This document shows positions 10,444-45,135 of a stretch of DNA of 47,403 bases, in pieces (positions within the stretch are counted from its first letter, which is position 1; each line of letters begins with the position of its first letter). A program made the translations under genes and the position numbers. The DNA comes from Parcubacteria group bacterium (GTDB taxonomy: Bacteria; Patescibacteriota; Minisyncoccia; Phycocordibacterales; Phycocordibacteraceae). The stretch covers positions 1 through 47,403 of the forward strand of contig JAQBRG010000008.1 of NCBI GenBank assembly GCA_028286615.1, given 5' to 3'. The notes under the pieces were generated by a model that was not told the origin of the DNA, did not search any database, and saw nothing but the letters and a program-made list of their open reading frames with translations.

Positions 10444-10446
10444 AGA

Positions 10447-13669: not shown

Positions 13670-13672
13670 GCG

Positions 13673-13981
13673 CTAGCGCGCCGAGGATGCCATTCCCGGG
13701 ATCGGCGCAAAGGGATCCCGGCGTCCAGATGCTTCAGGAATAATATTGGTGTGTATGTCTACAAGTGCTGCAAAGCGTGGGTCTGAGAATACGCTGGTAT
13801 CAAAAGCAACAGGATCAAGCTGGCTTGAAAGCGTGATGAACAGAGCTTCAGTACCGTTTGATGATCCTCCTATTTCAGATACTACTGGTTCTTCAGCGGG
13901 ACGCATCAAGAAAAAGGCAATGCCACCGCCAACAACGATGATTCCTGCAATGATACCGAGAGTTTTCTTGGAGATAGGCAT
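13673..13981 (-). CDS. Small single-pass membrane protein of the pilus operon (PilP-position)
   Basis: 102 aa with an N-terminal TM helix. It is separated from pilB by only 3 nt. Function is inferred from position only. Confidence 0.55.
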   Translation of the reverse strand: MPISKKTLGIIAGIIVVGGGIAFFLMRPAEEPVVSEIGGSSNGTEALFITLSSQLDPVAFDTSVFSDPRFAALVDIHTNIIPEASGRRDPFAPIPGMASSAR

Positions 13982-13987
13982 ATAAAT

Positions 13988-14596
13988 TTAGCGAAGCCAG
14001 TAGAGGCGGAAAGTTACGGTATAGGTATAGACTCCAGTTCCCTCTCCCTTAGCAACATCAATCGCAGCCACATCAAGAAGACGGAGGCTTCGTTCGACGG
14101 AATCAAGGAAGGTTCGGAAGGCGCTATAAGTACCGGTTGCCTTAACCGAGAGCTCAAGTGCTTCGGTAGGTCCTGATACCTGTACTGCAGAAGTTGCACC
14201 AACCGCGGTTGTCGCAGCAATCGGCGTAGCCGGAATTGAGGTAGGTGTCGCCGTTACAGTTGGTGCTGTTGGCTCATTCTTAATATCGAAATTTGAGAGC
14301 TGAAGACCTGAACGTGCAGCCAGACCCTGGAGATCAAGGATGAGCTGCACGTTATCCACGCCATCAGGAAGCATGGCTTGAAGACGAGTAAGCTTTTGAG
14401 GATCAAGCTTTGCTTTGTCTGCAGCAAGCTTAGCTTCTTTTTGTTTGAACTCGTCCGCTGCAGCTAGCGCACGCTTGTATCCAACGATTTCAGTCTTTAA
14501 GCCATCAATAGTAGTGGTGTACACAGGGTGTACGTACATGACGAGAATACCGATTGCCATGAGAATGAGTACGACTGGGAAAAGGCGGGAAATCAT
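13988..14596 (-). CDS. pilO: PilO-like pilus assembly protein
   Basis: 202 aa with an N-terminal TM helix, a coiled-coil segment (KRALAAADEFKQKEAKLAADKAKL) and a C-terminal ferredoxin-like part. It lies between the PilN-like and PilP-position genes. Confidence 0.65.
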   Translation of the reverse strand: MISRLFPVVLILMAIGILVMYVHPVYTTTIDGLKTEIVGYKRALAAADEFKQKEAKLAADKAKLDPQKLTRLQAMLPDGVDNVQLILDLQGLAARSGLQLSNFDIKNEPTAPTVTATPTSIPATPIAATTAVGATSAVQVSGPTEALELSVKATGTYSAFRTFLDSVERSLRLLDVAAIDVAKGEGTGVYTYTVTFRLYWLR

Positions 14597-14599
14597 AGG

Positions 14600-15322
14600 C
14601 TAGGGTGTTGAAGTTGCGGTTGGCATGGCATTTACTGGTGTCGTTGGGTTTGCCACCGGTGTTGTTGCAGTTGTCTTGGCTGCAGGCGTGGTGCTGGTAG
14701 GTGGTGGTGTTACAACGTTTGAAGTAGTAATTGGCGGAGTTACAAAGGAAGAAAGTATGACGAACTCAGGTGAAAGATCTGCCGTAAGAGAGAACGAGAC
14801 GCCTCCTCCCTTCTCAGTGCCTATATCTGAGAAGATGGCACGCTTTATACGCTTGTCCCCTGCAAAAGACGTGGACTGTGCAGCAAGAGCGTTAAACGTA
14901 GCAGCATGCCCTTCCATTCCAAGCGATGCTGAGTGGTCAGGATTAACTTCAAGCTTCAATGTTTCAAATCGTACGTTTTGAAGAGTGATACTTTCAAGTA
15001 CATTAAAGAATTGCGAAAGTCCTACGTGATTATCAAGCAACGTCTGTCCTGCGATAAATCTATTTCGAAGACGAATGAAATCTTCTACACTGCTACGATC
15101 GATATTCCTCTGAAGCGAATCAAGCTGTGCAACTTCTCCGTCACGCACATTCTCAAGATACTTCTGATACGCGAATGCTGCTGCAGCTGCCGCAAGGCTT
15201 ATGCCAAAAAGAACGACACCAATCAAGAGAAACACGTTGGTGCCTGAAGAAATACGCCGAGTCTGCGAGCTTACCGGCTGCTTAGGAACGAACGAGGTTG
15301 GAATAGTAGGAGGGAGAGCCAC
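14600..15322 (-). CDS. pilN: PilN-like pilus assembly protein with a Thr/Pro-rich tail
   Basis: 240 aa with a single TM helix after a short cytoplasmic N-terminus. It lies immediately downstream of pilM and has a T/P-rich C-terminus. Confidence 0.6.
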   Translation of the reverse strand: MALPPTIPTSFVPKQPVSSQTRRISSGTNVFLLIGVVLFGISLAAAAAAFAYQKYLENVRDGEVAQLDSLQRNIDRSSVEDFIRLRNRFIAGQTLLDNHVGLSQFFNVLESITLQNVRFETLKLEVNPDHSASLGMEGHAATFNALAAQSTSFAGDKRIKRAIFSDIGTEKGGGVSFSLTADLSPEFVILSSFVTPPITTSNVVTPPPTSTTPAAKTTATTPVANPTTPVNAMPTATSTP

Positions 15323-15374
15323 AATCGTAGTATACCGGTCAAAATGTTAGTTGCGAATGTTTATACACACTTCA

Positions 15375-16463
15375 CTAGTCTCCTTCTTCAAGTTTTCGAA
15401 GCGCGAGCCCAACCGCAACAGCAAACTCAGGGCCGATTTCCTGAAGAACAGGTCGCATGAAGGAAGGTGCTTCAACTTTTGCGAACGGGTCCGCAACTTG
15501 CACATCAATAGAGAAGAACGAGCGGGCGTATTCTCTTAATTGTTTTGTAACGCCTCCTCCGCCCGTAAGAATAAGTGCGGACACGGTCTTCTTATGCGCC
15601 ATTTCGTACTGAGAGATAGCGCGCTTCGTTTCTTCGAAGATGCGTGAGAAAACGAGTTCGATAGTTTGGCGCTCGTAACTATTGTCTGTGGCCGAACCGA
15701 AACCGAATGTTTTCTTTGAGACTTCTGCTTGAGAGAACGTATGGCCATGCGCGCTAGCAATAGAGCGCGTTACGTCCTGTCCTCCCTGAGGAATGTTGTG
15801 CGAGAGAGCAACTACGCCGTGCTCAACCACGTATACCTTTGATACTGAGGCACCGATATCAAGAACGACTACAGGCTTAACGGGTTCATTCACCACAGAA
15901 CGAATGGTGCTGAATATCTCAATCTCATAGAAGCTCGCCTCAAGCTGGCTTCCTGTTACAACGCTCTGAAGAAGAGTGAGCTCGTCATTCTGCACAGCAA
16001 CAAGGAGTACTTGGATCTTTTGTGGAGGCTCTGCTCCTTCTGGAAGCGGTTCAGGGATAATGAACCAGTCGAGCTGAATCTCTGACACCGGCACAGGGAT
16101 GTATTTGCGTGCCTCAAGTTCAATAATAGTCTTTTGCTGCGCAGGATCATCGCGACGTGGAAGCTCAACGAGTGTAAGAAGTGATCGTGAGAACGGAATG
16201 GAGATACCGCTTTCTTTGGTAGTTATATTTGCTTCATGAAGAAGGTCACGCAATGTCTCAGCAATTTTATCTGCTGGTAGGTTTGTTGCCTGTCCTACTT
16301 CCCCTCCGGTGTAAGGAGCAAGAGCAAGTTCGCCGTACGTCTCAAGCACTGCACCACCACCCTGGCGGCGTAGCTGTACAACTTTAAGAGACGAGGAGCC
16401 TATGTCCACGCCCACAACACTCGCTGATTTTTTCTTCGTAAACAGCGAATCAAGGAAACTCAT
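15375..16463 (-). CDS. pilM: PilM, actin-like ATPase of the type IV pilus alignment complex
   Basis: 362 aa with VGVDIGSSSLKVVQL and VLDIGASVSKV phosphate motifs of the actin/HSP70 fold. It is the first gene of the operon. Confidence 0.85.
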   Translation of the reverse strand: MSFLDSLFTKKKSASVVGVDIGSSSLKVVQLRRQGGGAVLETYGELALAPYTGGEVGQATNLPADKIAETLRDLLHEANITTKESGISIPFSRSLLTLVELPRRDDPAQQKTIIELEARKYIPVPVSEIQLDWFIIPEPLPEGAEPPQKIQVLLVAVQNDELTLLQSVVTGSQLEASFYEIEIFSTIRSVVNEPVKPVVVLDIGASVSKVYVVEHGVVALSHNIPQGGQDVTRSIASAHGHTFSQAEVSKKTFGFGSATDNSYERQTIELVFSRIFEETKRAISQYEMAHKKTVSALILTGGGGVTKQLREYARSFFSIDVQVADPFAKVEAPSFMRPVLQEIGPEFAVAVGLALRKLEEGD

Positions 16464-16504
16464 ATCAGAATTGTAGCATTTCGTTAGCAGGACGCCCGCA
16501 TGCT

Positions 16505-32549: not shown

Positions 32550-32990
32550 ATGAGTCTTATAGAGAACAAGAAGGCGCATCTGCGCTTTGAGGTGCTCGAA
32601 ACCTATCAAGCAGGTCTCGAACTTTCAGGCGCAGAAGCAAAAGCAATCCGTCAGAAGCACGGGAAGCTTGATGGTGCCCGCGTGTTGGTACGCGGCGGAG
32701 AGGCATACATTATAGGTATGTCTGTTCCTCCCTATCAGGTTGCGAATACTCCTGCAGGATATGAGCCTGCTCGTCCTCGCAAACTTCTTCTTAAGAAGAA
32801 AGAAATAGCTGAATTGCTTGAGGCTGAGGCGAAGAAAGGGTTGACAGTTGTGCCTTTAGAGGTATATAGTAGTGGGAGATACCTCAAGATTCGCGTTGCG
32901 ATTGTTCGTGGAAAGAACAAAGAAGACAAACGCGAAGACATGAAAAAGAAAGACGCGCAGCGTGAAGCATCGCGTCTTTTGAAACGCTAG
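32550..32990 (+). CDS. smpB: SsrA-binding protein
   Basis: 146 aa with IENKKAHLRFEVLETYQAGLELSGAEAKAIR and a basic C-terminal tail. It lies directly upstream of the tmRNA. Confidence 0.93.
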   Translation: MSLIENKKAHLRFEVLETYQAGLELSGAEAKAIRQKHGKLDGARVLVRGGEAYIIGMSVPPYQVANTPAGYEPARPRKLLLKKKEIAELLEAEAKKGLTVVPLEVYSSGRYLKIRVAIVRGKNKEDKREDMKKKDAQREASRLLKR

Positions 32991-33038
32991 TGGGCCGCTC
33001 GCGATCCACGAACCACTCTCCTGATTGGTTCGTGGATC

Positions 33039-33447
33039 GGGGGTGACCGGCTTTGACGGTCTGTACTTTGAGAGACGTGCGACGCAGTGGAAGGTTGTTG
33101 ACCACTTAAATCTCGCAACCACAAATACTTGCAAACAAAACTGCAAGCGTGTCTCCTTACTTTACTGCTAAGGATTTCACGTTCGCTTACGCGTAAGGGT
33201 TGAGCCTCGGCTCCTCTTCGCCTAAGCGACGTCTCTTTTTCTAGGTTCTCGTAGCTAGGAACTGAGGCGGAATTCTCTACGAGATCGGTATCGAGGGTTT
33301 CCCAGCTCTCGGCTTAAAAGATGGGATTAGGCAGGAACGTTTTCGCTCGAGTTCCTATGTTTCTGCTGAACCTACAACACGAGCTATGCGTCGTAGATTC
33401 GCTCTTAAAGCCAGATTCGGACCGGAGTTCAACTCTCCGCACCTCCA
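33039..33447 (+). ncRNA. ssrA: tmRNA (ssrA)
   Basis: The 5' GGGGGTGACCGGCTTTGACGG pairs with the 3' CACCTCC, including a G3-U wobble. The T arm is CGGAG-TTCAACT-CTCCG. The candidate tag ORF at 33131-33196 is GCA AAC AAA ... GCG TAA, giving ANKTASVSPYFTAKDFTFAYA. CCA is not encoded. Confidence 0.85.
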
Positions 33448-33458
33448 CATGGTTTCAT

Positions 33459-33484
33459 TAAAAGGCCCTAACGGGCCTTTTAAT
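33459..33484 (+). terminator. Intrinsic terminator after ssrA
   Basis: AAAGGCCC-TAAC-GGGCCTTT hairpin followed by a T-rich tail. Confidence 0.7.
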
Positions 33485-33567
33485 ATATACACGTCTTTAT
33501 CGTTGGGAGGTTCTACTATTCTGCAGCCATCTATCATAGAGCCCTTATTTCCCACCACCTCTCCTGC

Positions 33568-34893
33568 TCACATTGAAGGCTTGCTTTGATTTAACTTTGC
33601 AACCAAAAGCGTCAGTACGTTGTGAACAGAAGTTGATGTCATGCTTCTTGTAGTCTCGGTCCGCTGTACATACCCCCTATGGGCGTAATTGTTTCTGAGT
33701 TTGTACAAATCATCAAACCAAGGCTTTAACTCAGGCTTCAGTACATTGATAGCTCCAATAATGTATTTGGTCATGTCTTTGGTAATCCCTTTCGGAACAA
33801 ATAGATGTTCTAGACAACAATAAATTTGAAGGATTTTTGCACCTAAGTCTGGAATCTGTGTAGCGGAACTTAATATATCCAAAGTTGGAGCAATATCGCT
33901 AATACATGGACTAGTCCATGGATTTTTCAGATGCTCAAAAATCACTTTCGATTCGTTAAAAACCTTTTCAACCCCGCCTAAGTTTCTTCCATCTAAAAAC
34001 ATTGGGACAATACCTCGATACCCAAAGGACAGAAACAAGACGCCATCAGGAATCTTTTCCCAGGGTTTCTTTTCGTCCTCCTCCCAACTGTAGCCACCTC
34101 CCATAGCCTCAGGTCTCAGCATATACGGTGAGGAAGGTGCCATGATTTGAACTTTACCGGTTCCAAAATCTACTTGAGCTGGATACAAAAAAGCTGCAAC
34201 TCTTAAGACATTCAGGAAGGCGCGTAGTCGAGCTGTCCCGACAAAATACACGTACGTCCAACTTCCTTCGGTTTCGTAGCTAAAAGCTAAAGGACAATGT
34301 CGAATCGAGTCTGCTCCGGCTCCTGGATATAAATCTGTAAAAGTTTTATTGAACTTCGCATGACGTTTTTCTTGATCAAAATCCACGTATGCTCTGTAGG
34401 ACGGATCAAATTTTCCAAAGAACCCATCGAAAAACTCAGACCGAGTCTTTTCTGTTTCAAAATCTCTCAAGTCACTAATCTCCACGACTAGTGCACGCTT
34501 TATTATTGATCCCTCAAGGGCCAGTAAGTGTTTTTCAATTATGTCTTCGATCTTTTCACTCTTTTCACTCCAACTGAAAACAAAAGCACGTTCTGCAAAT
34601 AGGTCTGATCCACCAGCTCTCTGCGCAAATTCATGATCTGTCTGACAAGCCTTTAAAAGCTTCGCCTTAAAACAAATAGTGACGATATCTAGCGGTGCTA
34701 TCTTAAGATCTTTTTCTTCGAATTCCTGAAATAAACTTAGGAGCTCAGTCAGCAAGGCCCTTCTTTGGTAATACTTTTCTTTCCCCCACTTATCAAGTAA
34801 TGGCATTTGCATCGCAAGTGCTACTTCCGTCTCGGCAACGGCTTCAAGTCTTATAAAGGTTTCCTCACCAACTGAATTTCTAATCGCTGACAT
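33568..34893 (-). CDS. Large hypothetical protein with a C-terminal HEPN-type RNxxAH motif (candidate RNase/abortive-infection effector)
   Basis: 441 aa. The C-terminal helical region is CCLEHLF...WFDDLYKLRNNYAHRGY, with the Rx4H at 33679-33696. I recognise no motif in the N-terminal ~330 aa. Confidence 0.7.
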   Translation of the reverse strand: MSAIRNSVGEETFIRLEAVAETEVALAMQMPLLDKWGKEKYYQRRALLTELLSLFQEFEEKDLKIAPLDIVTICFKAKLLKACQTDHEFAQRAGGSDLFAERAFVFSWSEKSEKIEDIIEKHLLALEGSIIKRALVVEISDLRDFETEKTRSEFFDGFFGKFDPSYRAYVDFDQEKRHAKFNKTFTDLYPGAGADSIRHCPLAFSYETEGSWTYVYFVGTARLRAFLNVLRVAAFLYPAQVDFGTGKVQIMAPSSPYMLRPEAMGGGYSWEEDEKKPWEKIPDGVLFLSFGYRGIVPMFLDGRNLGGVEKVFNESKVIFEHLKNPWTSPCISDIAPTLDILSSATQIPDLGAKILQIYCCLEHLFVPKGITKDMTKYIIGAINVLKPELKPWFDDLYKLRNNYAHRGYVQRTETTRSMTSTSVHNVLTLLVAKLNQSKPSM

Positions 34894-34894
34894 T

Positions 34895-35431
34895 TTATTC
34901 GAAATTCGTTTTCACTCTTACTTTCTCTGTCATTTCGTTAACGCTGATATACCCAAGCGCATCCACATCAGGGTTATAGAGCTCAATCATATCGAGATCG
35001 TCACGCGGGAAAATTCGTGCGCCAGGAATGGCTTCTCCCTGCTGGAGTGATTCTTTCGTCTTCTTATAGCGCTCCGGCTCCATAACGAAATCTATATCAC
35101 CTGCCTGCGCGCGATAGATGTCTGGCTGACGAATGTAGAGATGGGTGTAGGTGGCTTCCGGTATATCCCCTTCTGCTGGAATGACGATAGGTTCGTGAAG
35201 ACGGAAATACTTCTGATTTTCGTTATCGGACTCTTCCGTGAGTTGCTTGCGCAGTTCAGTCAGGAATTTGTATTCCTCATCGTAGTGACAGAAAAAGCCG
35301 ACATTCCCTGCTATAGGTAGGTATTCATCAAGAGAGGCGTTGCAGAGCTTGAAGCACTCGATATGGATATGTCGAATGGCTTCGAGTAGGTCTGCATGGG
35401 TCGTGACAGGACTGAAACGGTATAGCTTCAT
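34895..35431 (-). CDS. Hypothetical protein, translationally coupled partner of the HEPN-motif gene
   Basis: Its stop TAA is 1 nt before the ATG of the downstream gene. I prefer the ATG at 35431 (MKLYRFSPV). No recognisable domain. Confidence 0.6.
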   Translation of the reverse strand: MKLYRFSPVTTHADLLEAIRHIHIECFKLCNASLDEYLPIAGNVGFFCHYDEEYKFLTELRKQLTEESDNENQKYFRLHEPIVIPAEGDIPEATYTHLYIRQPDIYRAQAGDIDFVMEPERYKKTKESLQQGEAIPGARIFPRDDLDMIELYNPDVDALGYISVNEMTEKVRVKTNFE

Positions 35432-35498
35432 GGCCCTAAGTATATGCCTATTTTCTATATGCTCTAGGCCCGCAACGTAGGTGCTACCATGTGAGGAA

Positions 35499-36092
35499 AT
35501 GAAAGAAGCAATAGGAGTCATCGGGGTGATTCTCACGTTCGTCGCCTACATTCCCTATTACCGAGACATCATCTCTGGTAAGACTCGACCTCATGTATAC
35601 AGCTGGTCGTTGTGGAGTTTGCTTACGATTCTGATTGTTGCTCTACAGATACAGGGAGGTGCTGGTCCGGCTACGTGGGTAACAGCGGCAGCAGGACTTT
35701 TGTGCGTAGGTGTAGTCTTTCTAAGCTTAAGGAATGGCAAGAAGGACATAACGAAGTCCGACACAGCTGTCGCTATTCTTTCCTTACTTGCGATTGTTTT
35801 CTGGCTTTTCATTCATCAACCAGAAATCTCGCTTACACTAGTGATAGTTGCTGACTTGCTCGCCTTCATACCAACTGTGCGTAAATCGTATATTGATCCT
35901 TACTCCGAGACCTTATCGCTTTACATAACTAATGCGCTTCGTTTTGGGCTGACCTTGCTCGCAGTTGAGCACTATACGTACCTCTCATCTGCATGGGTTA
36001 TTGCTTGGGCGGTAGGTAATGCATTGCTCTCTCTGCTCCTTATCGCACGCAGAATGAAGCTTCGAAAAGGAGGTTCTAATCTAGCGTCCTAG
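35499..36092 (+). CDS. Polytopic membrane protein (about 6 TM)
   Basis: Hydrophobic throughout. ATG 35499 is preceded by GAGGA. It is divergent from the two-gene module. Its last codons contain a GGTTCTAATCTAG motif copy. Confidence 0.6.
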   Translation: MKEAIGVIGVILTFVAYIPYYRDIISGKTRPHVYSWSLWSLLTILIVALQIQGGAGPATWVTAAAGLLCVGVVFLSLRNGKKDITKSDTAVAILSLLAIVFWLFIHQPEISLTLVIVADLLAFIPTVRKSYIDPYSETLSLYITNALRFGLTLLAVEHYTYLSSAWVIAWAVGNALLSLLLIARRMKLRKGGSNLAS

Positions 36093-36149
36093 TTCTGAGT
36101 ACCCCGTAGGTACGTATTGGCTTTCGTGTACTCATGGTGATACCCAGTC

Positions 36150-36295
36150 ATCAACCACTCGTAGGAAATATGAGGAGCCGTTTAGCATCAGCGAAGTTCT
36201 AACCTGGAATAACCAATTCCACAACTATACTCATTTTGAGTACACTCACTATGCTTAGAAAGCCGCCCATGAGGCGGCTTTCAATGTTAGAATCT
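36150..36295 (+). repeat. Cassette-boundary repeat, copy C (37-nt conserved module plus GC hairpin)
   Basis: The module at 36187-36223 is ATCAGCGAAGTTCTAACCTGGAATAACCAATTCCACA. The hairpin is GAAAGCCGCC-CATGA-GGCGGCTTTC (36258-36282), and GTTAGAATCTCTACAT follows at the end. Confidence 0.7.
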
Positions 36296-36299
36296 CTAC

Positions 36300-36602
36300 A
36301 TGTTTGAAGTTGCTGCAATACTACTGATCCCAACAGTTATTCTCTCGTTCATTATTCTGGGATTATTCCGTTTACTTACAAAGGTAATCCGTATTAATCG
36401 CTTTGGGACATCCATCTTTGGAGCGATAGTATTTCGTCTCTGTGAATTGGCCATTTATATAGGCGGAATGACATATATAACAAACATCTACGCCTACGGC
36501 GGAAAAATGACCTTTTCGGCGATACTTGCAATAGTATTTGCTGTTTATTATGCGATTTATTTAGGCATTGACCTATTGATCCATAGAAAGAGACTGTCCT
36601 AG
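36300..36602 (+). CDS. Small membrane protein (3 TM)
   Basis: 100-aa hydrophobic ORF bounded by repeat copies C and D. Confidence 0.5.
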   Translation: MFEVAAILLIPTVILSFIILGLFRLLTKVIRINRFGTSIFGAIVFRLCELAIYIGGMTYITNIYAYGGKMTFSAILAIVFAVYYAIYLGIDLLIHRKRLS

Positions 36603-36619
36603 GCTTTCCAAGAATCAAT

Positions 36620-36735
36620 AATTCGTGGGAAGTGTGTGGAACTGCTTTGTATCAGCGAGGTTCTTATATCGGATAACAACCTCCACGCATAAGGAAAATG
36701 AGAGAACCTCCCAAGGGGCGGCTCTCTCATTTCTT
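36620..36735 (+). repeat. Cassette-boundary repeat, copy D
   Basis: The module at 36651-36687 is ATCAGCGAGGTTCTTATATCGGATAACAACCTCCACG. It is followed by the hairpin AAATGAGAGA...TCTCTCATTT (about 36696-36732) and a T-rich tail. Confidence 0.7.
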
Positions 36736-36809
36736 AAAATTACTCTACGCCGGCTGCCAAAGCTCAATAGGATTTCCTTCTGGCTGGATTGAGTAGCCCG
36801 AGTTAGATA

Positions 36810-37175
36810 TTATTTAAAATATGCTCCTGTAAGAATTACAGGCAATATAAATACTATGACAGAAAGGAAGTATGGCCCAAAGAGCAGAGCTCCTGTCACC
36901 ATCGCTATGATTCCCAGGGCTCTTGCGAGTTGATAGCCGAGAGACCCCTTTGTACCTTTTACATGAGACTTGGATAACCTTCTATAGAAATAAATAGTAA
37001 CCAGAAATGCGAATACCATTCCTCCCAATACAAATCCGTTTGGGTCGTAATTACCCATACTTTTAACAGCTGGGTAAAAAAGAGAGATGGTTATTATTGC
37101 TGCTACTGAAGTAATTATCTGGTCTTTATGACTAGGAACTTTTGTTGAGAGCGGTGACGTATTTTGAGTTTCCAT
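36810..37175 (-). CDS. Small membrane protein (about 3 TM)
   Basis: 121-aa hydrophobic ORF bounded by repeat copies D and E. Confidence 0.5.
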   Translation of the reverse strand: METQNTSPLSTKVPSHKDQIITSVAAIITISLFYPAVKSMGNYDPNGFVLGGMVFAFLVTIYFYRRLSKSHVKGTKGSLGYQLARALGIIAMVTGALLFGPYFLSVIVFILPVILTGAYFK

Positions 37176-37254
37176 GTCCCAAGCATAACAATGTAGACAC
37201 GGAAGTAAATCACTTGTCCGCTGACACCAAAAGAAGCCAGCTTAGACTTTCCAC

Positions 37255-37400
37255 GAGTCCACGACCCATAAGAACTGTGAGAAACTTTTCAGAATTAGTG
37301 AGGTTCTAACGTCAGATAACCACCTCCACCGATATAGAACCACACGGAAACACGTGGGACATTAGAAAACCGCCTCTACGGGCGGTTTTCTAATCTACAT
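37255..37400 (+). repeat. Cassette-boundary repeat, copy E
   Basis: The module at 37294-37330 is ATTAGTGAGGTTCTAACGTCAGATAACCACCTCCACC. A perfect 13-bp hairpin TTAGAAAACCGCC-TCTACG-GGCGGTTTTCTAA (37362-37393) follows, and the element ends in TTTCTAATCTACAT. Confidence 0.7.
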
Positions 37401-37931
37401 CTGGTCTGGTTCCCTTTCTTTTGAATAGTCAGCCAGATAGTCAGGGTGCCCCCGTTCTTCCAATCCTTTTACGAAGTTCTGCACCAAGGATTTATTTAAA
37501 TGTATCTTCTCCGAAAGTCCTCTTAAGGAATCGAGGTCGCCATCAAGATACGCAATAGTTGCCCGGATATAGTTTGCCCAGTCTTCGTTTTGAGGCCCAA
37601 CTTCTAGAGAGTCGTGGAGGGCTCTTTCAAAATCATCTTTTACGTCTGCTTCACCTTTCGAGAGTCTTATTTGGGCCTTATGGAAGAAAGTTAGTGATCG
37701 AATACTATAAAACTTCGTGCGATCTTGTGTCTCCTGAAACGCTTCAACGATTTCAGGCTGAGAGAGAATCTCAGCCGCCAGCAAAGAACTTTTACGTTCA
37801 CGGTCTGCCTGATCGAGTTCAAGTACCTTATCGAGAAAATTATCTGGGCTGATTCCTCCCGCAGCAAAAGTCTTGCTCAGGTTCTCAAGTGAATTCTCAG
37901 CTCCATTCGGCTGTACTGTCGGCCTTTCCAT
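37395..37931 (-). CDS. Helical hypothetical protein
   Basis: 178-aa soluble, helix-rich ORF with no recognised motif. It is bounded by repeat E and motif copy F. Confidence 0.55.
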   Translation of the reverse strand: MERPTVQPNGAENSLENLSKTFAAGGISPDNFLDKVLELDQADRERKSSLLAAEILSQPEIVEAFQETQDRTKFYSIRSLTFFHKAQIRLSKGEADVKDDFERALHDSLEVGPQNEDWANYIRATIAYLDGDLDSLRGLSEKIHLNKSLVQNFVKGLEERGHPDYLADYSKEREPDQM

Positions 37932-38054
37932 GTAGACAAACTATATCAAGGTTCTAATCGCATGCACCCCCCTCTATAGAAATATATAGAGCAATGGGTC
38001 GCCCTAATCAGGCGACCCATTGTCAGCAAAACTCGGCAGAGATTCTTACAAGAA

Positions 38055-38492
38055 TTACTTTTCTGCCAATTCTTTAATCTTTTCAAGAGCTTTGGGCCAG
38101 GCTTCATTAAACATACCAGCATACTCATCAGGAAGGTGGAGCAAGTCTATGGATACCTCAGTGCCTCCATCCTTGTCTTGCAGGGTGTAGTTCTCAAAAC
38201 CACTGCTCTCCATAGGCACCTCGATTCCATTCCGCATTTCAGCGTGATGCTCCAAGGAAATGAATTCTTGCGAGCGATTCTCTTTAACGAGGGCCACCAT
38301 ACCGCCCTCCTTCTCGCCTTCCGCGGCTGGACCGAGGAAAAGCATCTTCGAGCCTTCGCTCCAATCACCCTGATAGTAGGACCCTGGCATGAATACCGAG
38401 GTCCATTCACGATACGTCGCATCATCAAGCAGCACATCCCATACTTTCTCGCGAGGAGCATTAATTTGTTTTGAGTAATGAAGATCTGTCAT
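38055..38492 (-). CDS. SRPBCC/Aha1-like (START-fold) domain protein
   Basis: 145 aa. INAPREKVWDVLLDDATYREWTSVF and the C-terminal WPKALEKIKELAE are typical of the AHSA1/SRPBCC family. Confidence 0.7.
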   Translation of the reverse strand: MTDLHYSKQINAPREKVWDVLLDDATYREWTSVFMPGSYYQGDWSEGSKMLFLGPAAEGEKEGGMVALVKENRSQEFISLEHHAEMRNGIEVPMESSGFENYTLQDKDGGTEVSIDLLHLPDEYAGMFNEAWPKALEKIKELAEK

Positions 38493-38590
38493 AAGTAGTG
38501 CGACTAATATCTAATAGACACTAATTTACCACGCAACCTTGAGAAGTCATGGACTAAGTTATCTCGCAGTTCGTAAAATGACCCGAACGC

Positions 38591-38944
38591 TCACTTTACC
38601 GCCTGAAGAATCAGGTCCGTAAATACAGGCACATCAATGTCTTTGAGGGTACGGACTTTGACGTGGCGAACATACTTGCCTTTCCCTATCAACAACTCGT
38701 TCCATTTTTTGAATGATGAGCCGTTATAGAAACCGAACTGTACATGGTCAGGCTCGGTATGGATAAATAATTTTGGTACCGTACCTTTCACCCAACAGCC
38801 CTGTCCCCATTTGACGGTGGTCATGAGCTGAGGAGCCGTACCCTTTACCAATCGCTCTAGCGCGCCGATAAGCTTTTGATTCTTAGGCGATTTGTCCTTC
38901 TTCCATTCAGAGAACGAACCGTACGCTTTCATTTTTTGTGGCAT
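38591..38944 (-). CDS. DUF1801/YdhG-like small protein
   Basis: 117 aa. The pattern EWKKDKSPKNQKLIGALERLV...VKWGQGCW...FGFYNG...YVRHVKV matches my recollection of the DUF1801 family. Confidence 0.55.
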   Translation of the reverse strand: MPQKMKAYGSFSEWKKDKSPKNQKLIGALERLVKGTAPQLMTTVKWGQGCWVKGTVPKLFIHTEPDHVQFGFYNGSSFKKWNELLIGKGKYVRHVKVRTLKDIDVPVFTDLILQAVK

Positions 38945-39048
38945 TGATTTAGTGGCGTTTATTGTGAGTTAATTTTAACTCACAGAAGGCAACAAAAGGT
39001 TCTAATCTACTTTCTCAAAATCCCGCGGGGTCTTTGGGCTCACCCGAA

Positions 39049-39948
39049 ATGCTGGCTGCTATACTTCCACTCATGGAATTATGGTTCTTGCTTGCAATCG
39101 GATCGGCGCTCGCCGGTGGAATTGGTTCTTTCACTCACAAGGTTGCCGCTGTGAAGAACTACGACATTGCCGTACTGAGCGTGTACGCATCGATGATCTC
39201 CGCATTCATGCTTTTGTGTTGCACTCTTTACTTCGCCGGGATGGAACACTTCTGGGAATTCTCCACAGTCATCGCACTCGCAGCAGCTGTTACTACCTTC
39301 CTGACATTAGTTCTTAAAATAAAGTCTCTCCGTCTCATTGATGCGACACTATTCTTCCCGCTGTATAAAGTGTCCGGACCGTTTCTCACTATTCTTCTTG
39401 GAGTCTTAGTATTCCGAGAGTCATTCACTCCCATTGAATGGGTTGGTTTGGTTACAACGTTATGTGTCCCGCTACTTCTGATTACTAGGTCAGAGAATTT
39501 ACGCCAGAAGAATCTTGTCTTGGGTCTCCAGATATTACTTATCGCTTCAATAACAGCGGCTGTATCCATTGGCCTATCCAAGTATGGAACTAACATTGCG
39601 AACAACCTGTGGCTCTTCCTTCTGGTGAGCGAAATATTTACTGTCGCGAGTGCTTTCTTGTTGCTTATACAGAAACACAGAACGGCAACCTTTACATTCT
39701 TCAAGACGGAAAGTTCTCCGGCAGCGCTGTGGCTTGTTCTCATCATGGGTATTACCCAGTCCCTTAGCTTTATGACAATAATGTTCGCGTTTGCTACAGG
39801 CGGTACGTTGGCAATTGTCTATACGATCAGTTCGCTCTACATACTCATTCCCATCATCCTTTCGATTGTTATCTACAAGGAACATTGGAATGCTCGCAAG
39901 GCTATAGCGATTGTGCTCTCGATTGCAGCGCTGGCATTACTTAAATAA
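39049..39948 (+). CDS. EamA/DMT-family transporter
   Basis: About 10 TM segments in two halves. I prefer ATG 39049 over the TTG at 39034. Confidence 0.7.
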   Translation: MLAAILPLMELWFLLAIGSALAGGIGSFTHKVAAVKNYDIAVLSVYASMISAFMLLCCTLYFAGMEHFWEFSTVIALAAAVTTFLTLVLKIKSLRLIDATLFFPLYKVSGPFLTILLGVLVFRESFTPIEWVGLVTTLCVPLLLITRSENLRQKNLVLGLQILLIASITAAVSIGLSKYGTNIANNLWLFLLVSEIFTVASAFLLLIQKHRTATFTFFKTESSPAALWLVLIMGITQSLSFMTIMFAFATGGTLAIVYTISSLYILIPIILSIVIYKEHWNARKAIAIVLSIAALALLK

Positions 39949-40091
39949 TAGAGAGTTCTGCATCCCAGTAGCGAAGTCCTGGCCGAAAGGATTCGCTCCC
40001 GCTGTATCTAGCAAGATGGCCAATAGGTTACTAGTGTGCCTTGCATTCCAGGCAAGCCCCTTGTGCGTTACCATAACCAACAACAACTGTT

Positions 40092-41879
40092 ATGAAATTC
40101 GGTAAGGCGCTGACTCAAGAATCAACTATCTTTCTCATTCGGAAACTGTGGCAATTTTCTAAAGGAAGACATTGGCAGATTGTCCTATATACGGGCATGT
40201 TCGTAGTAGCCAATCTGATCACACTCCTTCCTCCCTTAATTTTCGGAGCATTCATTCGCGAGGTGCAGCAGCAAGGAATAGCAACGGAGAATTACGGTTA
40301 TCTTTTCCTATTACTTTTCTTTCTATTCTTTATAGAGATAGTCTTCTGGGCATTTCACGGACCCGCTCGTATCATCGAGCGTTCGGTAGCATTCTGGGCA
40401 GAACTTAACTATCGACGATACCTACTTAAGGGTGTGCTCGACTTAGGACTAACCTGGCATGGTGAGCACGACTCGGGAGATACGATCGATAAGGTTAATA
40501 AGGCTGGCGATGGTCTGGGCAGCTTTGGTAAGAATGTGTTTCAAATCTTACAGATAGTTATTAAGTTGCTGGGTACCTCCATTGTTTTGTTCTACTTCTC
40601 TCCGGCGATAGGTATATTCGTCTTCGTGCTAGTTGTTGTTTCTTTTATTGTTATCTTCCAATTTGATAGATATCTCATACCGCAGTATCGACGTCTTAAT
40701 GAATTCAGTAACAAGGCGATGGCAAGCATATTCGATGCGCTCTCTAACATCACCAGCGTAAAAATACTTCATATCGAGATGCCTGTCTTAAAAGGTATTG
40801 TCTCTCGCTTAGAAGCGCCTTATACCAAGTACCAAGCGAATTCGAAATTAAATGAAGCAAAGTGGTTTACAGGAGGAATTCTTTTCCAGGCAATCGCTGT
40901 TCTCCCCATCGTCTTCTACATCTATCACGCCTCTTCAAGTAACCAGCCTATTGATGCCGGAACAATTTCAACCCTGTTCCTGTACCTAACCAATCTGACA
41001 TTCGTTTATTTTGGCTTTACTGACTTCTATCAAGACCTAGCTATCTACAAAAACCAAGTACTAAACGTGGAGTCTGTGGAAGATGCATTTGCTGCGAAAA
41101 ACATACTCAAGCGAAAGAGCACGAGCGCGTGGGGAACGCTTACTATTAGTGACCTTACGTTTACCTATGATGAAGGCGGAGAAGTACCACACCTATATAA
41201 GGTAGGTCTCCAAATTCAACGTGGAGAACGAATCGCTGTTATAGGAGAGTCAGGATCAGGAAAGACAACTTTTCTTAAGGTGCTCCATGGACTTTACCCT
41301 TCCGCTCAGGGAACACTGACCTTGGATAGATCAGAGAGTATACCAACCTCCTTCGCAGACTTGGATCTTAAGACCATGCTCGTTCCACAAGAACCGGAAA
41401 TATTCTCTTCAACCATTCGCGAGAACATAACGCTGGGCATTGCCTATCCAGAGGAGGACATCGTGCACGCGATGCGTGTCGCAAACTTTGAGAAGGTAGT
41501 GCAGGAACTGCCGAGCGGTCTTGATTCTGTAATAAACGAAAAAGGAGTGAGTCTTTCTGGTGGCCAGAAGCAGCGTCTAGCACTTTCACGCGCACTTCTT
41601 TTTGCTAGAGATAAAGAAATGATTCTTTTGGATGAATCAACCAGTTCTGTTGATTCAGAAAATGAGACCGAGATCTATACAAACATTTGGCAAGACTTTG
41701 TAGGCAAGACCGTCATAGCTTCTATCCATAAGATGAATTTGCTCAAACTCTTCGATCGCATTTATATCTTTGAAAAGGGGCAGATAGTTGACGCTGGATC
41801 TTTTGACGATCTTCTAAACAGGAGCGCTTCTTTCAAAGATGCGTGGGATCAGTTTGTCGCAATGCGACGAGAAAAATAA
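40092..41879 (+). CDS. ABC exporter, fused permease/ATPase
   Basis: 595 aa with a 6-TM N-terminal domain, Walker A GESGSGKTT, the signature LSGGQKQR and Walker B ILLDEST. Confidence 0.9.
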   Translation: MKFGKALTQESTIFLIRKLWQFSKGRHWQIVLYTGMFVVANLITLLPPLIFGAFIREVQQQGIATENYGYLFLLLFFLFFIEIVFWAFHGPARIIERSVAFWAELNYRRYLLKGVLDLGLTWHGEHDSGDTIDKVNKAGDGLGSFGKNVFQILQIVIKLLGTSIVLFYFSPAIGIFVFVLVVVSFIVIFQFDRYLIPQYRRLNEFSNKAMASIFDALSNITSVKILHIEMPVLKGIVSRLEAPYTKYQANSKLNEAKWFTGGILFQAIAVLPIVFYIYHASSSNQPIDAGTISTLFLYLTNLTFVYFGFTDFYQDLAIYKNQVLNVESVEDAFAAKNILKRKSTSAWGTLTISDLTFTYDEGGEVPHLYKVGLQIQRGERIAVIGESGSGKTTFLKVLHGLYPSAQGTLTLDRSESIPTSFADLDLKTMLVPQEPEIFSSTIRENITLGIAYPEEDIVHAMRVANFEKVVQELPSGLDSVINEKGVSLSGGQKQRLALSRALLFARDKEMILLDESTSSVDSENETEIYTNIWQDFVGKTVIASIHKMNLLKLFDRIYIFEKGQIVDAGSFDDLLNRSASFKDAWDQFVAMRREK

Positions 41880-42363
41880 GTCGGTTACCGCTATCACTGA
41901 AAATACTTCTTATGGCCTTCTGCATAAGGCCAGCTCCTCTGACAACTTATCGGACTTTATCAACAGTTACTCTCTCAAACAATCCTAGACGTTGTACGGA
42001 AATTTAAACCTCGCAGCCTCCACTGAGATTACAAGCAGATTCAAAACATGAAGAGTACATCTTTTAAGTTGATGGTGCCTAAATATCGAAGGTACCTAAC
42101 TCGTAGTTATCCATGTGGCTTACTTATTAGCGAAGTCGGATAGATTTTATACCTATAAAGAGCTTTATCCAGACCAATGTATGCAGAGATACAGATATGG
42201 TTCGTTACCAGGGCTCGTGCGTACAAAACAACCAATGTAACTCTCCAAAACAATCTTGCATTATTCTTTTCTTAAAAAGAAAAAGCCTGCTAAATGGCCG
42301 TATCTTGCGTGATAGCATACGGGAGTGTTGCAGAAAACACTTTACTCATCCCCTATCGCCATT

Positions 42364-45135
42364 ATGAATCTTCGGAAGCTTCCCCTGCTAGTGGGCATTC
42401 TCTTGTTCACTCTCGCACCGTTCACCACACATGCAGCATTACTCGTTTCAGATCTTGCGCCCGGCATACAAAACGCCGAAGTGTCTGACTTGCAAAACGC
42501 ACTTGCAAAGATGGGGTACTTCAACGCACTTGAGCGTGGGTACTTCGGTTCACAAACGCAAACCGCGCTTCGCTCATTCCAGACTACAGCCGGACTTCCT
42601 GTCACAGGACTTCCTGATGCGTTGACGCGTAATGCAATTAATTCTTTTAGCCAGTTCAATTCCGCTTCTCCCACAGCTTCAGGAATTCACGCTGGAGCCA
42701 CGTCCTCAACAGGAGACGTGCTCGGTGCAAGCACAGAGCGCGTTAACGCAAATCTTTCGATTGGCACTTCTGGAGACCAGGTACGTATTCTTCAAGAATG
42801 GTTGAAGCGTCTCGGATATTTTCAGGAAACAGCAACCGGCTATTACGGAACACTTACGAGTGCAGCTGTTAGCAGATTCCAACAAGCATATGGAATTCCA
42901 GTTGTAGGTACTGTTGGTCCTATTACGCGCGAAAGACTTAACGCGTTAGTTTCAACTGGAACTACAGTAGTTAGTACTCCTACTCTTACTCTCACAGCAA
43001 GCAAAACTCCTGTTCAGTCAAAGGACTCTGTAGAAATTTCTTGGACTGCGACGAACGCAAGTTCTTGTCGCGCTTCAGGTGCATGGTCTGGGTCAAAAAG
43101 AGTTTCTGGTTCTGATACACAAAAGAACCTAACCTCGGGCAAGACCTACAAACTTACCTGCTCAGGTACTTCAGGCTCTGTAGAGAAATCTGTAACGGTA
43201 GATGTAGCTAGAGTGTCTTCTGCAAATGCTCCATCCGTTTCTTTCTCTGTCTCCCCTTCTGAGGTTTCCCAAGGAGGAACCACGACCATTACTTGGTCTT
43301 CGAAAGATGCCACCAGCTGTACAGCTACTGACACTTCGCTATGGAATGCCGGCAACCTCACTGCTGGAAAGGTAACGGTATCTAACCTGCAAACTTCCCG
43401 AAGCTTCGGGGTTACTTGTTCAGGAGCCGGAGGTTCTGTAACAAAGTCAGATTCAGTCACCGTACGAAGCGTTTCTACCAGTAGCACAGGCGACACGGGA
43501 ACCGTTGTTACTTCAACACCGGCACCGGCTCACACCACCCCTACGACGTCTGATCCTGTGCCTACGCACACAACCACAACTATTCCCACGCCAACGACGC
43601 CAACACACGGCACAACTGCCCCTGATCCAACGGTTTCCTTCTCGGCAAACCGCACAAGCGTCTCTTATAACGATAGCGTTACCCTCACCTGGTCTTCGAC
43701 TAACGCTACGAGCTGCACCGCAAGTGGTGCAGGTTGGTCTACTTCCCAGCCAACGGCAGGGACCGTTACCGTGCCGCGCATGACAGCAAGTCAGACATAC
43801 ACTCTTACTTGCAGCGGTGCAGGCGGAAACTCATCGAAATCAATTGCTATCACGGTTGGTGCTGCGCCCGTAACAACGACTCCTTCTACTCCTACGACTC
43901 CTCCTCCTTCTACCACTCCCCCACCAACACCTACTCCAAGCACCACAGGGCTTCCTGTGCTCCTTAAGGCTTCAGGTGGGCTCACTGGTCCGCAGAATGG
44001 TGTCGCTTCAATCACCTACAACTGGACTGGAGTTCCGATGGCAGCTGACTACTACATGTTCGTGCATGTCCTTGATGCAAACGGTGGGATTCTCTTCCAG
44101 AACGACTCGCCAATACCGTCACGTACCTGGTCCGGTCCCTACTCAATGACTAATTCGGTTAAAGTTCCCGCAGGTATCCCGGTTGGAAAATACAGCCTAC
44201 GTGCAGGAATCTTCTCGCTCGCGAGCGGATATCCAAAAATGCCTGTTACTCCTGGTCCTGGCGTAACCAAGACCGGCGGTGAAGAGGCGTACATTATCGG
44301 CACCCTCACAGTCACGGCGGGTACAAATCTTCCGTACAGTCCTCCGAATGATCCATCTGCGTATCCTGGAATGCCAGTTCAGACTTCGATTCCGAACGCC
44401 GGCGACCCGATAACCGGAAACTTCAATGACGACTTCCACCCCGCAGGTATGAATCTCAAATTCCATGATGAGTTCAACGGGACGAAACTTAACACCAACA
44501 CTTGGAACGAGATGTATCTCTGGGGCGACCGATTCCTCTCAGGTAACAGCGAGAAAGAGTGTTACCTCGAAGAGAACGTGCGTGTCGCTGGCGGCAACTT
44601 GATCTTCGACGCGAAGAAACAAGATGTTATCTGTCCTAAGTACAACATCGTGCAGCCTTACACCTCAGGCATGGTCACGACCTCGAAATCCTTCGTGCAG
44701 TCGTACGGCTACTGGGCTATAAGAACGAAGCTTCCTCGCGGTCAAGGATTCTGGCCAGCCTTCTGGCTCCTCCCTAACAACGCTGGATGGCCACCTGAGC
44801 TCGACATCTTCGAAGTGCTCGATCAGGACCCGACGACGCTCTACAACTCGATTCACACCTCGTCTCCGACAAATCCTAATATTGGATTGACGCTTACGGC
44901 GAAGGTCGCCGACCTCAGTACTTCGTATCACGTGATAGCGGCTGACTGGGAACCAACCTACATAATCTTCTATCTCGATGGTGTAGAGGTGAATCGCATC
45001 AACCAGGTGTTCAACAGCATCCCGATGTATCTCGTTGCCAATCTTGGCGTCGGTGGCTCATGGGGAGGAAACCCTGATTCCACGACCCCATTCCCTTCTA
45101 CGATGGATACGGATTGGATACGTGTCTACAAGTAA
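42364..45135 (+). CDS. Large secreted multidomain protein: two PG-binding domains, three Ig-like repeats, Thr/Pro linkers and a C-terminal GH16 glycoside hydrolase
   Basis: The start is at ATG 42364 (MNLRKLPLLVGILLFTLAPFTTHA, a signal peptide). There are two PG_binding_1-like repeats and three repeats of the type (I/L)(S/T)W(S/T)(A/S)(T/K)(N/D)A(S/T)SC...TCSG. The GH16 catalytic motif WPPELDIFE lies at 44797-44814. Confidence 0.85.
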   Translation: MNLRKLPLLVGILLFTLAPFTTHAALLVSDLAPGIQNAEVSDLQNALAKMGYFNALERGYFGSQTQTALRSFQTTAGLPVTGLPDALTRNAINSFSQFNSASPTASGIHAGATSSTGDVLGASTERVNANLSIGTSGDQVRILQEWLKRLGYFQETATGYYGTLTSAAVSRFQQAYGIPVVGTVGPITRERLNALVSTGTTVVSTPTLTLTASKTPVQSKDSVEISWTATNASSCRASGAWSGSKRVSGSDTQKNLTSGKTYKLTCSGTSGSVEKSVTVDVARVSSANAPSVSFSVSPSEVSQGGTTTITWSSKDATSCTATDTSLWNAGNLTAGKVTVSNLQTSRSFGVTCSGAGGSVTKSDSVTVRSVSTSSTGDTGTVVTSTPAPAHTTPTTSDPVPTHTTTTIPTPTTPTHGTTAPDPTVSFSANRTSVSYNDSVTLTWSSTNATSCTASGAGWSTSQPTAGTVTVPRMTASQTYTLTCSGAGGNSSKSIAITVGAAPVTTTPSTPTTPPPSTTPPPTPTPSTTGLPVLLKASGGLTGPQNGVASITYNWTGVPMAADYYMFVHVLDANGGILFQNDSPIPSRTWSGPYSMTNSVKVPAGIPVGKYSLRAGIFSLASGYPKMPVTPGPGVTKTGGEEAYIIGTLTVTAGTNLPYSPPNDPSAYPGMPVQTSIPNAGDPITGNFNDDFHPAGMNLKFHDEFNGTKLNTNTWNEMYLWGDRFLSGNSEKECYLEENVRVAGGNLIFDAKKQDVICPKYNIVQPYTSGMVTTSKSFVQSYGYWAIRTKLPRGQGFWPAFWLLPNNAGWPPELDIFEVLDQDPTTLYNSIHTSSPTNPNIGLTLTAKVADLSTSYHVIAADWEPTYIIFYLDGVEVNRINQVFNSIPMYLVANLGVGGSWGGNPDSTTPFPSTMDTDWIRVYK

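Follow-up and report, generated by a model that had tools for sequence, protein, structure and literature searches.

In Dehalococcoides, genomic islands are stacked in tandem at ssrA, the gene for transfer-messenger RNA (tmRNA), with a 20-bp ssrA repeat and the serine recombinase DsiB; 15 of these islands lack an integration module and were proposed to be cis-mobilizable (PMC3146451). A related concept is that of the cis-mobilizable elements (CIMEs), which are flanked by att sites, carry neither integrase nor transfer genes, stand in tandem with other elements and rely on a recombinase provided in trans (concept as in PMC3146451). Here, we analyzed what lies downstream of ssrA within a stretch of 47,403 nucleotides (nt) from a Parcubacteria group bacterium (assembly GCA_028286615.1, contig JAQBRG010000008.1; "the window" hereafter denotes this whole stretch). 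We consider it reasonably probable that, between ssrA and ~38 kb, four or more integrase-less modules form a tandem array and that these modules were inserted site-specifically at the tmRNA 3′ end by a recombinase acting in trans. A conserved repeat of ~160 nt (the element), containing short GGTTCTAAY motifs (boxes), recurs along this region. Full-text literature searches returned no description of such arrays for Parcubacteria or Patescibacteria.

The nearest described system is that of the Dehalococcoides ssrA islands, and the nearest concept is that of CIMEs in accretion arrays. As in Dehalococcoides, units are stacked in tandem directly downstream of a single-copy tmRNA gene and bring strain-specific accessory cargo; in contrast to these islands, the units measure 0.46–2.8 kb, share a core of 5–9 nt and carry a 160-nt arm each, and no recombinase, of the DsiB/DsiA kind or any other, was found among the open reading frames (ORFs) scanned in ~40 units. 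With CIMEs and the site-specific accretion of streptococcal integrative and conjugative or integrative and mobilizable elements (ICEs and IMEs) at tRNA-type sites, the locus shares att-type repeats on both sides and the lack of a recombinase in the cargo scanned. CIMEs are, however, defined by an autonomous ICE or IME with the same att sites, whereas here the units are of cassette size and a second tier of recombination appears to operate at internal boxes.

Further comparisons can be drawn with other site-specific systems. By analogy, the ~160 nt plus 60–120 nt around a short core, with a direct-repeat motif in both arms and a small attB, recall an attP site of the lambda type, although many left ends lack a box and box binding is putative. 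As in the tDNA islands recognized by Islander, the tmRNA gene is intact and regenerated, but no island integrase was found in the ORFs scanned; with regard to Islander's displaced-fragment criterion, 5–9 nt (TCCAC to CACCTCCAC) are in common and a tmRNA profile misses the element. In integrons, attC sites are imperfect palindromes conserved by structure, and cassettes are co-oriented and mostly promoterless; a cluster of attC sites lacking an integrase is termed CALIN. Like these, the locus appears to receive small accessory units serially at a fixed site, with a repeated tag between them and no adjacent integrase; unlike these, it shows no IntI, a tag that is conserved in sequence rather than as a folded attC, mixed gene orientation and an anchor at the tmRNA 3′ end. 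New relative to the known systems are thus the cassette-sized units, the long box-bearing tag, the very short core, the box-level events and the recombinase-free units examined.

The box motif GGTTCTAA(C/T), which had drawn attention in the initial annotation of this stretch, is the visible part of the larger, sequence-conserved and non-coding element. The element opens with GGTTCTAAT and closes with AGCGARGTTCTAAC-N15-YTCCAC (GARGTTCTAAC-N15-YTCCAC), and thus contains the motif twice. A repeat finder recovered three copies of a long unit in the window (family D1, ~70% mutual identity). A profile of the window copies matched a second locus, L003, whose ~160-nt element is ~82% identical (our count) to window positions 36066–36222. 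Altogether, the element was found in 25 loci (the window and 24 others, designated by L numbers) from Patescibacteria genomes and metagenomes, with one to three copies each. To collect these loci, genome contigs were scanned twice with sequence patterns and metagenome contigs once, look-ups of protein context were added later, and nhmmer served as the filter in each case; the first pattern, AGYGARGTTCT-N15-MYTCCAC, was too degenerate and yielded chiefly chance matches before this filtering. In all 14 loci in which a tmRNA gene and the element are both present, the element lies downstream on the same strand (14/14).

Within the window, nhmmer matched a single full copy, two copies reduced to their 3′ halves and two vestiges with weak support, all on the plus strand. 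The full copy (36066–36222, ~157 nt, E = 2.7e-52) carries a 5′ box GGTTCTAAT at 36072 and a 3′ box AGTTCTAAC at 36195, and ends at 36222 with ...AATTCCAC (also written ...AACCAATTCCAC). The two halves, both members of D1, are located at 36605–36686 (E = 1.4e-17, model positions 80–164, box GGTTCTTAT at 36659, terminus ...ACCTCCAC at 36686) and at 37250–37329 (E = 5.4e-16, box GGTTCTAAC at 37302, terminus ...CACCTCCAC at 37329). At 37948–37968, a box GGTTCTAAT (37950) with a shortened spacer and a weak nhmmer match (37949–37974, model 133–158, E = 0.07) would represent the vestige of a fourth element's 3′ end, sitting just before a two-hairpin flank that resembles one of the left-end families introduced below (N1). 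At 38992–39016, a solo box, GGTTCTAATCTAC, upstream of the EamA gene includes an exact 8-mer and matches the model weakly (positions 5–29, E = 0.04); it is possibly the vestigial 5′ start of another element, an assignment that is uncertain.

Several ordinary explanations for a conserved non-coding repeat were considered and rejected. As regards a structured RNA, the tmRNA was the only Rfam match above threshold, matches to the element were sub-threshold and at chance level, folding of either strand with RNAalifold yielded no consensus structure (−2.5 to −6.4 kcal/mol for ~165 columns), and two candidate hairpins at the element 3′ end showed no convincing covariation. A small ORF was rejected by reading of the alignment: the candidate short frames, which occur on both strands, are interrupted or differ non-synonymously between copies. 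A recognizable 3′ fragment of the tmRNA gene was not detected either, the best match of a tmRNA profile having E = 0.66. At the same time, element copies are 81–88% identical across genomes whose tmRNA genes share 60–76% identity. Because it lacks an RNA fold, an ORF and a tmRNA match, yet is better conserved than the tmRNA gene, the element behaves as conserved double-stranded DNA, like the arms of a recombination site.

Evidence on the process that built the array comes from its junctions. Units join exactly after ...TCCAC, which is the tmRNA 3′ terminus, and TCCAC junctions flank every unit on both sides. Four families of left ends (N1, N2, N3 and M) start at the first base after TCCAC, behind a tmRNA gene or an element alike. 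N1, made up of CGATATAGAAC..., a hairpin and a terminator, stands behind the tmRNA gene in L003, L080 and L215, and behind elements at window position 37330 and in L215, L242, L243, L245 and L250. N2 is found after the tmRNA gene in L137 and L249 and after elements at window position 36223 and in L247 and L251. M occurs behind the tmRNA gene at window position 33449 and in L087, L240, L236, L244 and L251, and behind elements in L137, L227 and L215 as well as, in truncated form, in L245 and L123; its layout comprises a terminator, ...ACGGATTGNA, GGTTCTAAY at exactly +61 and a 50-nt tail. TCCAC precedes all complete M ends that a profile search found (window, L087, L240, L236, L244, L137, L227, L215, L251, L248 and L219). 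In at least 13 loci, sequence homologous to the M end at window position 33449 stands behind a tmRNA gene or an element, always preceded by TCCAC. Left of the junction, what the two kinds of partner have in common is just TCCAC up to CACCTCCAC, i.e. 5–9 nt. The breakpoints are therefore fixed within a few bases, which is a signature of site-specific recombination rather than of homology-driven exchange.

A comparison of empty and occupied sites points in the same direction. L001 represents an element-free, empty site, in which tmRNA-CCAC is followed directly by TAAATAGAAAAC (TAAATAGAAAACAGCCCGC...) and an SRPBCC gene. At that point, L236 carries an insert of 2,092 nt, consisting of an M left end, one gene for a 483-amino-acid protein (with a sub-threshold TIR-like match) and an element. 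From the first base after CCAC, the L001 flank is 76% identical to the sequence behind the element in L236, compared with 37% for the sequence behind the L236 tmRNA gene. In the window, the tmRNA gene is intact, and the insert begins at the first base past ...CCAC. The SRPBCC/AHSA1 gene of the window (38055–38492, minus strand; Pfam) encodes a protein with 50% amino acid identity to its L001 homologue and is distal to the array, as it is in L236, L248 and L249. The two-hairpin flank leading into it (37969–38040, plus strand, z-score −6.4) is 71% identical over 500 nt to the post-element flank of L248. Beyond the SRPBCC gene, the window continues with a DUF1801 gene, the solo box at 38998 and the EamA gene.

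The main competitor to site-specific insertion is a hotspot of homologous recombination, in which the element would be a chromosomal landmark, cargo would be swapped via natural transformation and extra copies would arise by duplication. No recombinase was found in any locus scanned, the cargo is bordered by conserved homology of ~400 nt (tmRNA gene) on one side and ~160 nt (element) on the other, the window holds a type IV pilus or competence-like cluster (by reading), and the element is more conserved than the tmRNA gene, all of which would suit such exchange. It does not account, however, for four families of flanks, unrelated to one another, that all begin at one and the same base behind TCCAC when their left partners share 5–9 nt only, and it leaves unexplained both the element-free empty site of L001 against the precise insert of L236 and the head-to-tail modules with differing left ends. 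Nor does the element possess a detectable RNA fold, ORF or promoter that could explain its conservation as a chromosomal gene. Overall, we regard a homologous-recombination hotspot as unlikely, while it fares best among the competing explanations.

In the window, the junctions define four units: unit 1 at 33449–36222, unit 2 at 36223–36686, unit 3 at 36687–37329 and unit 4 from 37330 to ~37968. All five post-junction segments fold into strong hairpins (z-scores −4.3 to −8.0); a simple terminator scan had missed them on account of its T-tail rule, and folding revealed them. These hairpins fit the module model, because a module that lands on the tmRNA gene must bring a terminator. The M-type left end of unit 1 (33449–33567, plus strand) opens with ATGGTTTCATTAAAAGG and contains a terminator hairpin at 33460–33481 (z −5.0), a box GGTTCTAC at 33509–33516, i.e. 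at +61, and a tail of ~50 nt. The N2 left end of unit 2 (36223–36295, plus strand, z −4.3) has a small hairpin and a terminator at 36257–36282, and the left end of unit 3 (36687–36745, plus strand, z −4.5) a terminator-like hairpin at 36696–36732 (inverted repeat I18). The N1 left end of unit 4 (37330–37394, plus strand, z −8.0) again combines a small hairpin with a terminator, whose 3′ strand reads GGTTTTCTAAT (37384–37394).

Two further observations concern the left ends. In left ends of the N type, the terminator stem has GGTT(T)(T)CTAAT as its 3′ strand, i.e. the box enlarged by one or two T (window 37384–37394, L003 7128–7137, L103 ~598–608); the box and the tail of the terminator may share an evolutionary origin, or the terminator may at the same time serve as a site. 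On the reverse strand of L219 (~1530–1600), the M-type left end is preceded by ...GGCCGGTTCAAACTTCGGGACATCGGCTCCAC, a T-arm/acceptor-like sequence that the tmRNA profile missed and that may be a divergent tmRNA or tRNA-like target.

The initial annotation had reported seven plus-strand box copies between ssrA and the EamA gene and had argued that they exceed chance. All seven were found at the reported positions, apart from the last, which begins at 38998 instead of 38997, and the argument holds: the window contains five exact copies of the 8-mer GGTTCTAA, every one on the plus strand, against 1.15 expected from shuffled sequences, and none of 100 shuffles reached five. Four of these five copies are located within 36072–39005, and at least four same-strand copies in 5.5 kb have a Poisson probability of ~1e-6 at the shuffled rate (our own estimate). 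When one mismatch was allowed, 18 matches were counted across the window versus 17.4 expected, i.e. without enrichment. Since this window-wide count is ordinary, the signal lies in local clustering and strand bias and not in abundance. The near-copies at 36195, 36659 and 37302 occupy homologous positions in three copies of the longer repeat, and that at 33509 has the fixed +61 position of a conserved left-end sequence. The pattern recurs in relatives: across the first 24 loci collected (175.7 kb), exact copies of the 8-mer number 48 on the tmRNA strand and two on the opposite one, with ~2.7 expected per strand; 37 of the 48 fall in element copies and 10 of the remaining 11 within arrays. Outside the array, the motif is seldom found, and relatives show no synteny over the interval, contrary to what the initial annotation had named as grounds for refutation. 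A general promoter motif was rejected, as the remaining 42 kb of the window contain one other exact copy, inside an ORF, and a sigma-70 scan of the elements was empty.

The boxes had also been taken as unit boundaries. The primary boundaries in fact lie 20 nt 3′ of the 3′ box, at ...TCCAC|, and it is a second tier of rearrangements that maps to the GGTTCTAAY boxes. In L240 and L244, the 5′ box and the element come immediately after the gene for a 178-amino-acid protein (p178). In the window, the gene for a 203-amino-acid membrane protein (mem203; 35481–36092, plus strand), whose last codons enter the 5′ box of the element, intervenes between p178 and the element, and the box to its left is decayed. 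Comparison with L240, L244 and L087 places this decayed box, together with an element-like start, at 35440–35480 (plus strand), which we read as the probable left scar of a box-level insertion. In L087, mem203 lies between two copies of GGTTCTAATCTNNCGTCCTAGTTTT, in the order box, mem203, box, element, and in L216 and L251 a TauE gene stands between two boxes in the position of mem203; the duplicated boxes with 15–28 nt of the element start flank mem203 in L087 and TauE in L216 and L251. In addition, L080 shows a left flank of the M-box type fused at the box to the body of an element. Judged from these comparisons, the boxes appear to act as recombination points for single genes, which comes close to what the initial annotation had proposed.

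Pieces of modules also look recently exchanged between genomes. Between the window and L087, mem203 is 89% identical at the amino acid and 81% at the nucleotide level, and mem203 plus its element 81% at the nucleotide level, compared with 63% for SmpB and 60% for the tmRNA gene of the same pair. Similarly, the M left end of the window, which follows the tmRNA gene, and that of L137, which follows an element, show 94% identity over their first 70 nt; the respective tmRNA genes share 76% identity.

Under the mechanism that we propose, a module would consist of a left end with a terminator hairpin, the cargo and a right end of ~160 nt (the element) finishing in YTCCAC; such modules, of 0.46–2.8 kb with one to three genes each, would be non-autonomous. 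The tmRNA 3′ end would serve as attB, with its terminal bases ...CACCTCCAC (33440–33448, plus strand) as the proposed core, and attP would be composed of the element as P arm, with its two boxes, then the TCCAC core, and then the left end as P′ arm, which in the M type has a third box at +61. Integration would yield tmRNA-TCCAC|left end ... element-TCCAC|old flank, and repeated integration would stack modules. In a second tier, single genes would be inserted or deleted at the GGTTCTAAY boxes. As no recombinase was found in the modules or nearby, it would have to act in trans. The attP-like layout of 230 nt with repeated boxes resembles a site for a lambda-type tyrosine integrase with arm sites, and the short core of 5–9 nt would also suit a serine recombinase. 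Our inferences are the mechanism of recombination, a function of the boxes in protein binding and mobility at the present day, whereas the repeat family, the precise junctions, the shuffling of flank families, the empty and the occupied site, the variation in cargo and the lack of a recombinase in the loci scanned are observed.

A number of results weigh against such an array of site-specifically inserted modules. Pfam detected no recombinase domain in the array genes or in ten uncertain ORFs of the window, and the remaining ORFs (Gat, LigA, the type IV pilus cluster, RecG, FtsH and others), which were judged by reading only, appear to be housekeeping genes; the initial annotation had likewise seen no integrase in the window. 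In the other loci, scans of cargo and flanking ORFs from ~40 modules, which were not exhaustive, returned no recombinase and no integrase remnant. No excised circle, strain-level presence or absence, or autonomous relative was found; exact-protein look-ups for strain comparison returned short contigs from the same sample only, and all comparison genomes are metagenome-assembled genomes (MAGs) or metagenome contigs. The element was absent from IMG/VR, INPHARED and PLSDB, i.e. no phage or plasmid carrier was seen there. The shared core comprises only 5–9 nt, and about half of the left ends have no box, for which reason the idea of arm sites is not general. Finally, copies 2 and 3 are half elements and the fourth is vestigial, and parts of the array may therefore be fossil.

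Truncated and vestigial copies would also be expected if the array as a whole consisted of fossil scars, left by decayed integrase-carrying islands or prophages at ssrA and now immobile, with the elements being displaced tmRNA 3′ fragments plus island DNA. The element end GARGTTCTAAC...YTCCAC is loosely like a T-arm and acceptor 3′ strand, GGTTCTAAT differs by one mismatch from the tRNA T-loop sequence GGTTCGAAT, and tandem displaced fragments at ssrA are classical (PMC3146451 and PMC4383910). Nevertheless, the tmRNA profile misses the elements, and independent decay would not give element identities of 81–88% where tmRNA genes share 60–76%. The ORFs scanned in ~40 modules contain neither an integrase nor a remnant of one, and the recently exchanged look of module pieces does not fit immobile scars either. 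We therefore consider a purely fossil array improbable, and more so than a homologous-recombination hotspot.

Single-strand transposition by an HUH enzyme (IS200/IS605-PATE-like) would insert DNA in one orientation 3′ of TCCAC by means of subterminal hairpins. Insertion exactly 3′ of a short sequence, the absence of inverted terminal repeats, a strictly uniform orientation and the hairpins near the left ends agree with this; but these hairpins come from several unrelated families and look like ordinary terminators, a conserved hairpin at the right end is unsupported, and no Y1/Y2 transposase was found. The HxH-containing p178 models weakly as a VOC-like and not as an HUH protein, and overall we attach very little probability to this mechanism.

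An integron or CALIN array of attC-bounded promoterless cassettes handled by IntI is practically negligible as an explanation, given that no IntI was found, that genes are oriented both ways, that the anchor is the tmRNA gene instead of attI and that the repeat is conserved in primary sequence without a consensus hairpin or covariation, even though the units are small, mostly single-gene and accessory in content, with a repeated separating site and no nearby integrase. The initial annotation had offered an integron-like or tandem-integration array as its interpretation. Its second half is supported: the junctions at TCCAC are precise, tmRNA genes and elements are followed by the same families of flanks, relatives show an empty and an occupied site, the cargo varies between genomes, and no recombinase was found in the ORFs scanned; the integron-like half is not supported. 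It had rightly remarked that the classical orientation rule of integrons is broken, as cargo lies on both strands.

With regard to a recombinase for the modules, no Resolvase-family protein was found in or beside tmRNA arrays among the ORFs scanned, and there was no Y1_Tnp match. A lead comes from L253, where a gene for a large serine recombinase of the Resolvase family (2148–3697, 512 amino acids) shares sequence with the 3′ part of a tRNA-Ala gene that lies on the other strand. This tRNA-Ala gene ends with ...GGTCCACC, and ~5 kb downstream ...AAGGTCCAC matches the tRNA-Ala end (region 7200–12000). Directly behind ...AAGGTCCAC (GGTCCAC) follows an M-type left end (E = 0.004, box at +61) and then cargo including p178; the unit closes with a diverged element-like end, GAAGTTCTAAT-N15-ACACCAC, plus a terminator. 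These sequence matches suggest that the same module family also docks at tRNA-Ala. The genes for tRNA-Ala and tmRNA have the terminus TCC-A-C in common, and the identity elements for alanine that tmRNA bears, G3:U70 and A73, would explain this. This suggests the TCCAC terminus as the target and the serine recombinase as one candidate enzyme, which we treat only as a lead: a search for relatives of the L253 recombinase next to tmRNA genes returned the query itself and two distant matches only.

More speculatively, and with considerably less assurance than for the array itself, one might see in these loci an independently evolved, integron-analogous platform for gene capture in Paceibacteria and related Patescibacteria, with docking at the alanine-type acceptor end TCCAC of the tmRNA gene and, in one locus, of tRNA-Ala, 160-nt cassette tags, a box-level tier and an unlinked recombinase of host or helper origin. 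If this were true, reduced genomes would gain a swappable store of defence and other accessory genes. Members of the candidate phyla radiation (CPR)/Patescibacteria have very small genomes, and their acquisition of accessory genes is little understood; the locus would offer such genes a defined and recurrent point of entry. Such arrays would probably escape programs that need an integrase to call an island, Islander among them, and the 160-nt element provides an easy handle for screening. The locus also poses a concrete question, namely which enzyme recognizes the tmRNA terminus together with the tag. Should this recombinase be identified, the locus, with its small attB and its compact, tagged cassettes, could also be of practical interest for site-specific integration.

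The cargo is of accessory type and different in every locus. By Pfam, it includes cytochrome d1, pirin, LUD, cytidylyltransferase, NUDIX, PRTase, methyltransferase, DUF3800 (three times), SocA/Panacea, cyclase and HAD hydrolase proteins; reading of the sequences adds an HxlR-like regulator, APH, a kinase, TauE (also annotated in L251) and an OLD-like protein. In the window, the genes between ssrA and EamA are small, and a family could be assigned only for SRPBCC and DUF1801. These two labels and that of the EamA/DMT transporter had already been given in the initial annotation and agree with Pfam, whereas its HEPN label found no match in Pfam, PADLOC or NCBIfam. Besides mem203, unit 1 encodes a 441-amino-acid protein (33568–34893, minus strand), to which the HEPN label had been given and which has no Pfam, PADLOC or NCBIfam family, and p178 (34895–35431, minus strand; 213 amino acids according to the ORF tool). 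Units 2 and 3 carry one membrane protein each, of 100 amino acids (36300–36602, plus strand, no family) and 121 amino acids (36810–37175, minus strand, sub-threshold MurJ match only), and unit 4 a helical protein of 178 amino acids without a family (37395–37931, minus strand).

p178 belongs to a very widespread and unusually conserved Patescibacteria family without a Pfam domain; it has 1074 homologues, and the best 120 of these 1074 share 63–91% identity. Its gene adjoins the element in L240, L244, L216 and L251, and in arrays it is usually paired with variable larger proteins upstream. This position and an HIH motif made p178 a candidate HUH or other recombinase, which was rejected on the basis of a weakly VOC/glyoxalase-like fold and the lack of a PDB sequence match. 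As the confident model (pLDDT 92) gives weak VOC/glyoxalase-like matches only, p178 is treated as cargo.

SmpB (32550–32990), which is encoded upstream of ssrA, has at most 75% identity to any species representative, with top matches that are all Parcubacteria/Paceibacterota MAGs. The tmRNA gene itself (33039–33448, plus strand) was identified by ARAGORN and by Rfam RF00023 at full length (107 bits). Between the smpB stop codon and ssrA lies a 26-nt inverted repeat (32993–33048), whose right arm overlaps the first tmRNA bases; L003 has an equivalent smpB-ssrA hairpin of different sequence at ~6621–6665. The repeat may be an smpB terminator or a stem for tmRNA 5′ processing. At the tmRNA gene, the GC content drops from ~0.50 upstream to 0.42–0.46. 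The low values extend over 33500–42500, past the recognizable array and through the EamA and ABC transporter genes, and the acquired or variable region may exceed the part that is still marked by elements.

Two regions farther upstream are also worth mentioning. The minus strand at 5500–16500 carries a long type IV pilus/type II secretion-like cluster with pseudopilins, a prepilin peptidase and PilC, PilT, PilB and PilM-like proteins, as recognized solely from a reading of the translations; the cluster bears on DNA uptake, by which cassettes could be exchanged. Close to the start of the window (325–993, plus strand), an ORF of 222 amino acids combines an N-terminal helix-turn-helix (several Pfam families of this type) with a segment, LGLGLYWGEGYK, that looks LAGLIDADG-like by eye, and it may be a free-standing homing-endonuclease-like gene.

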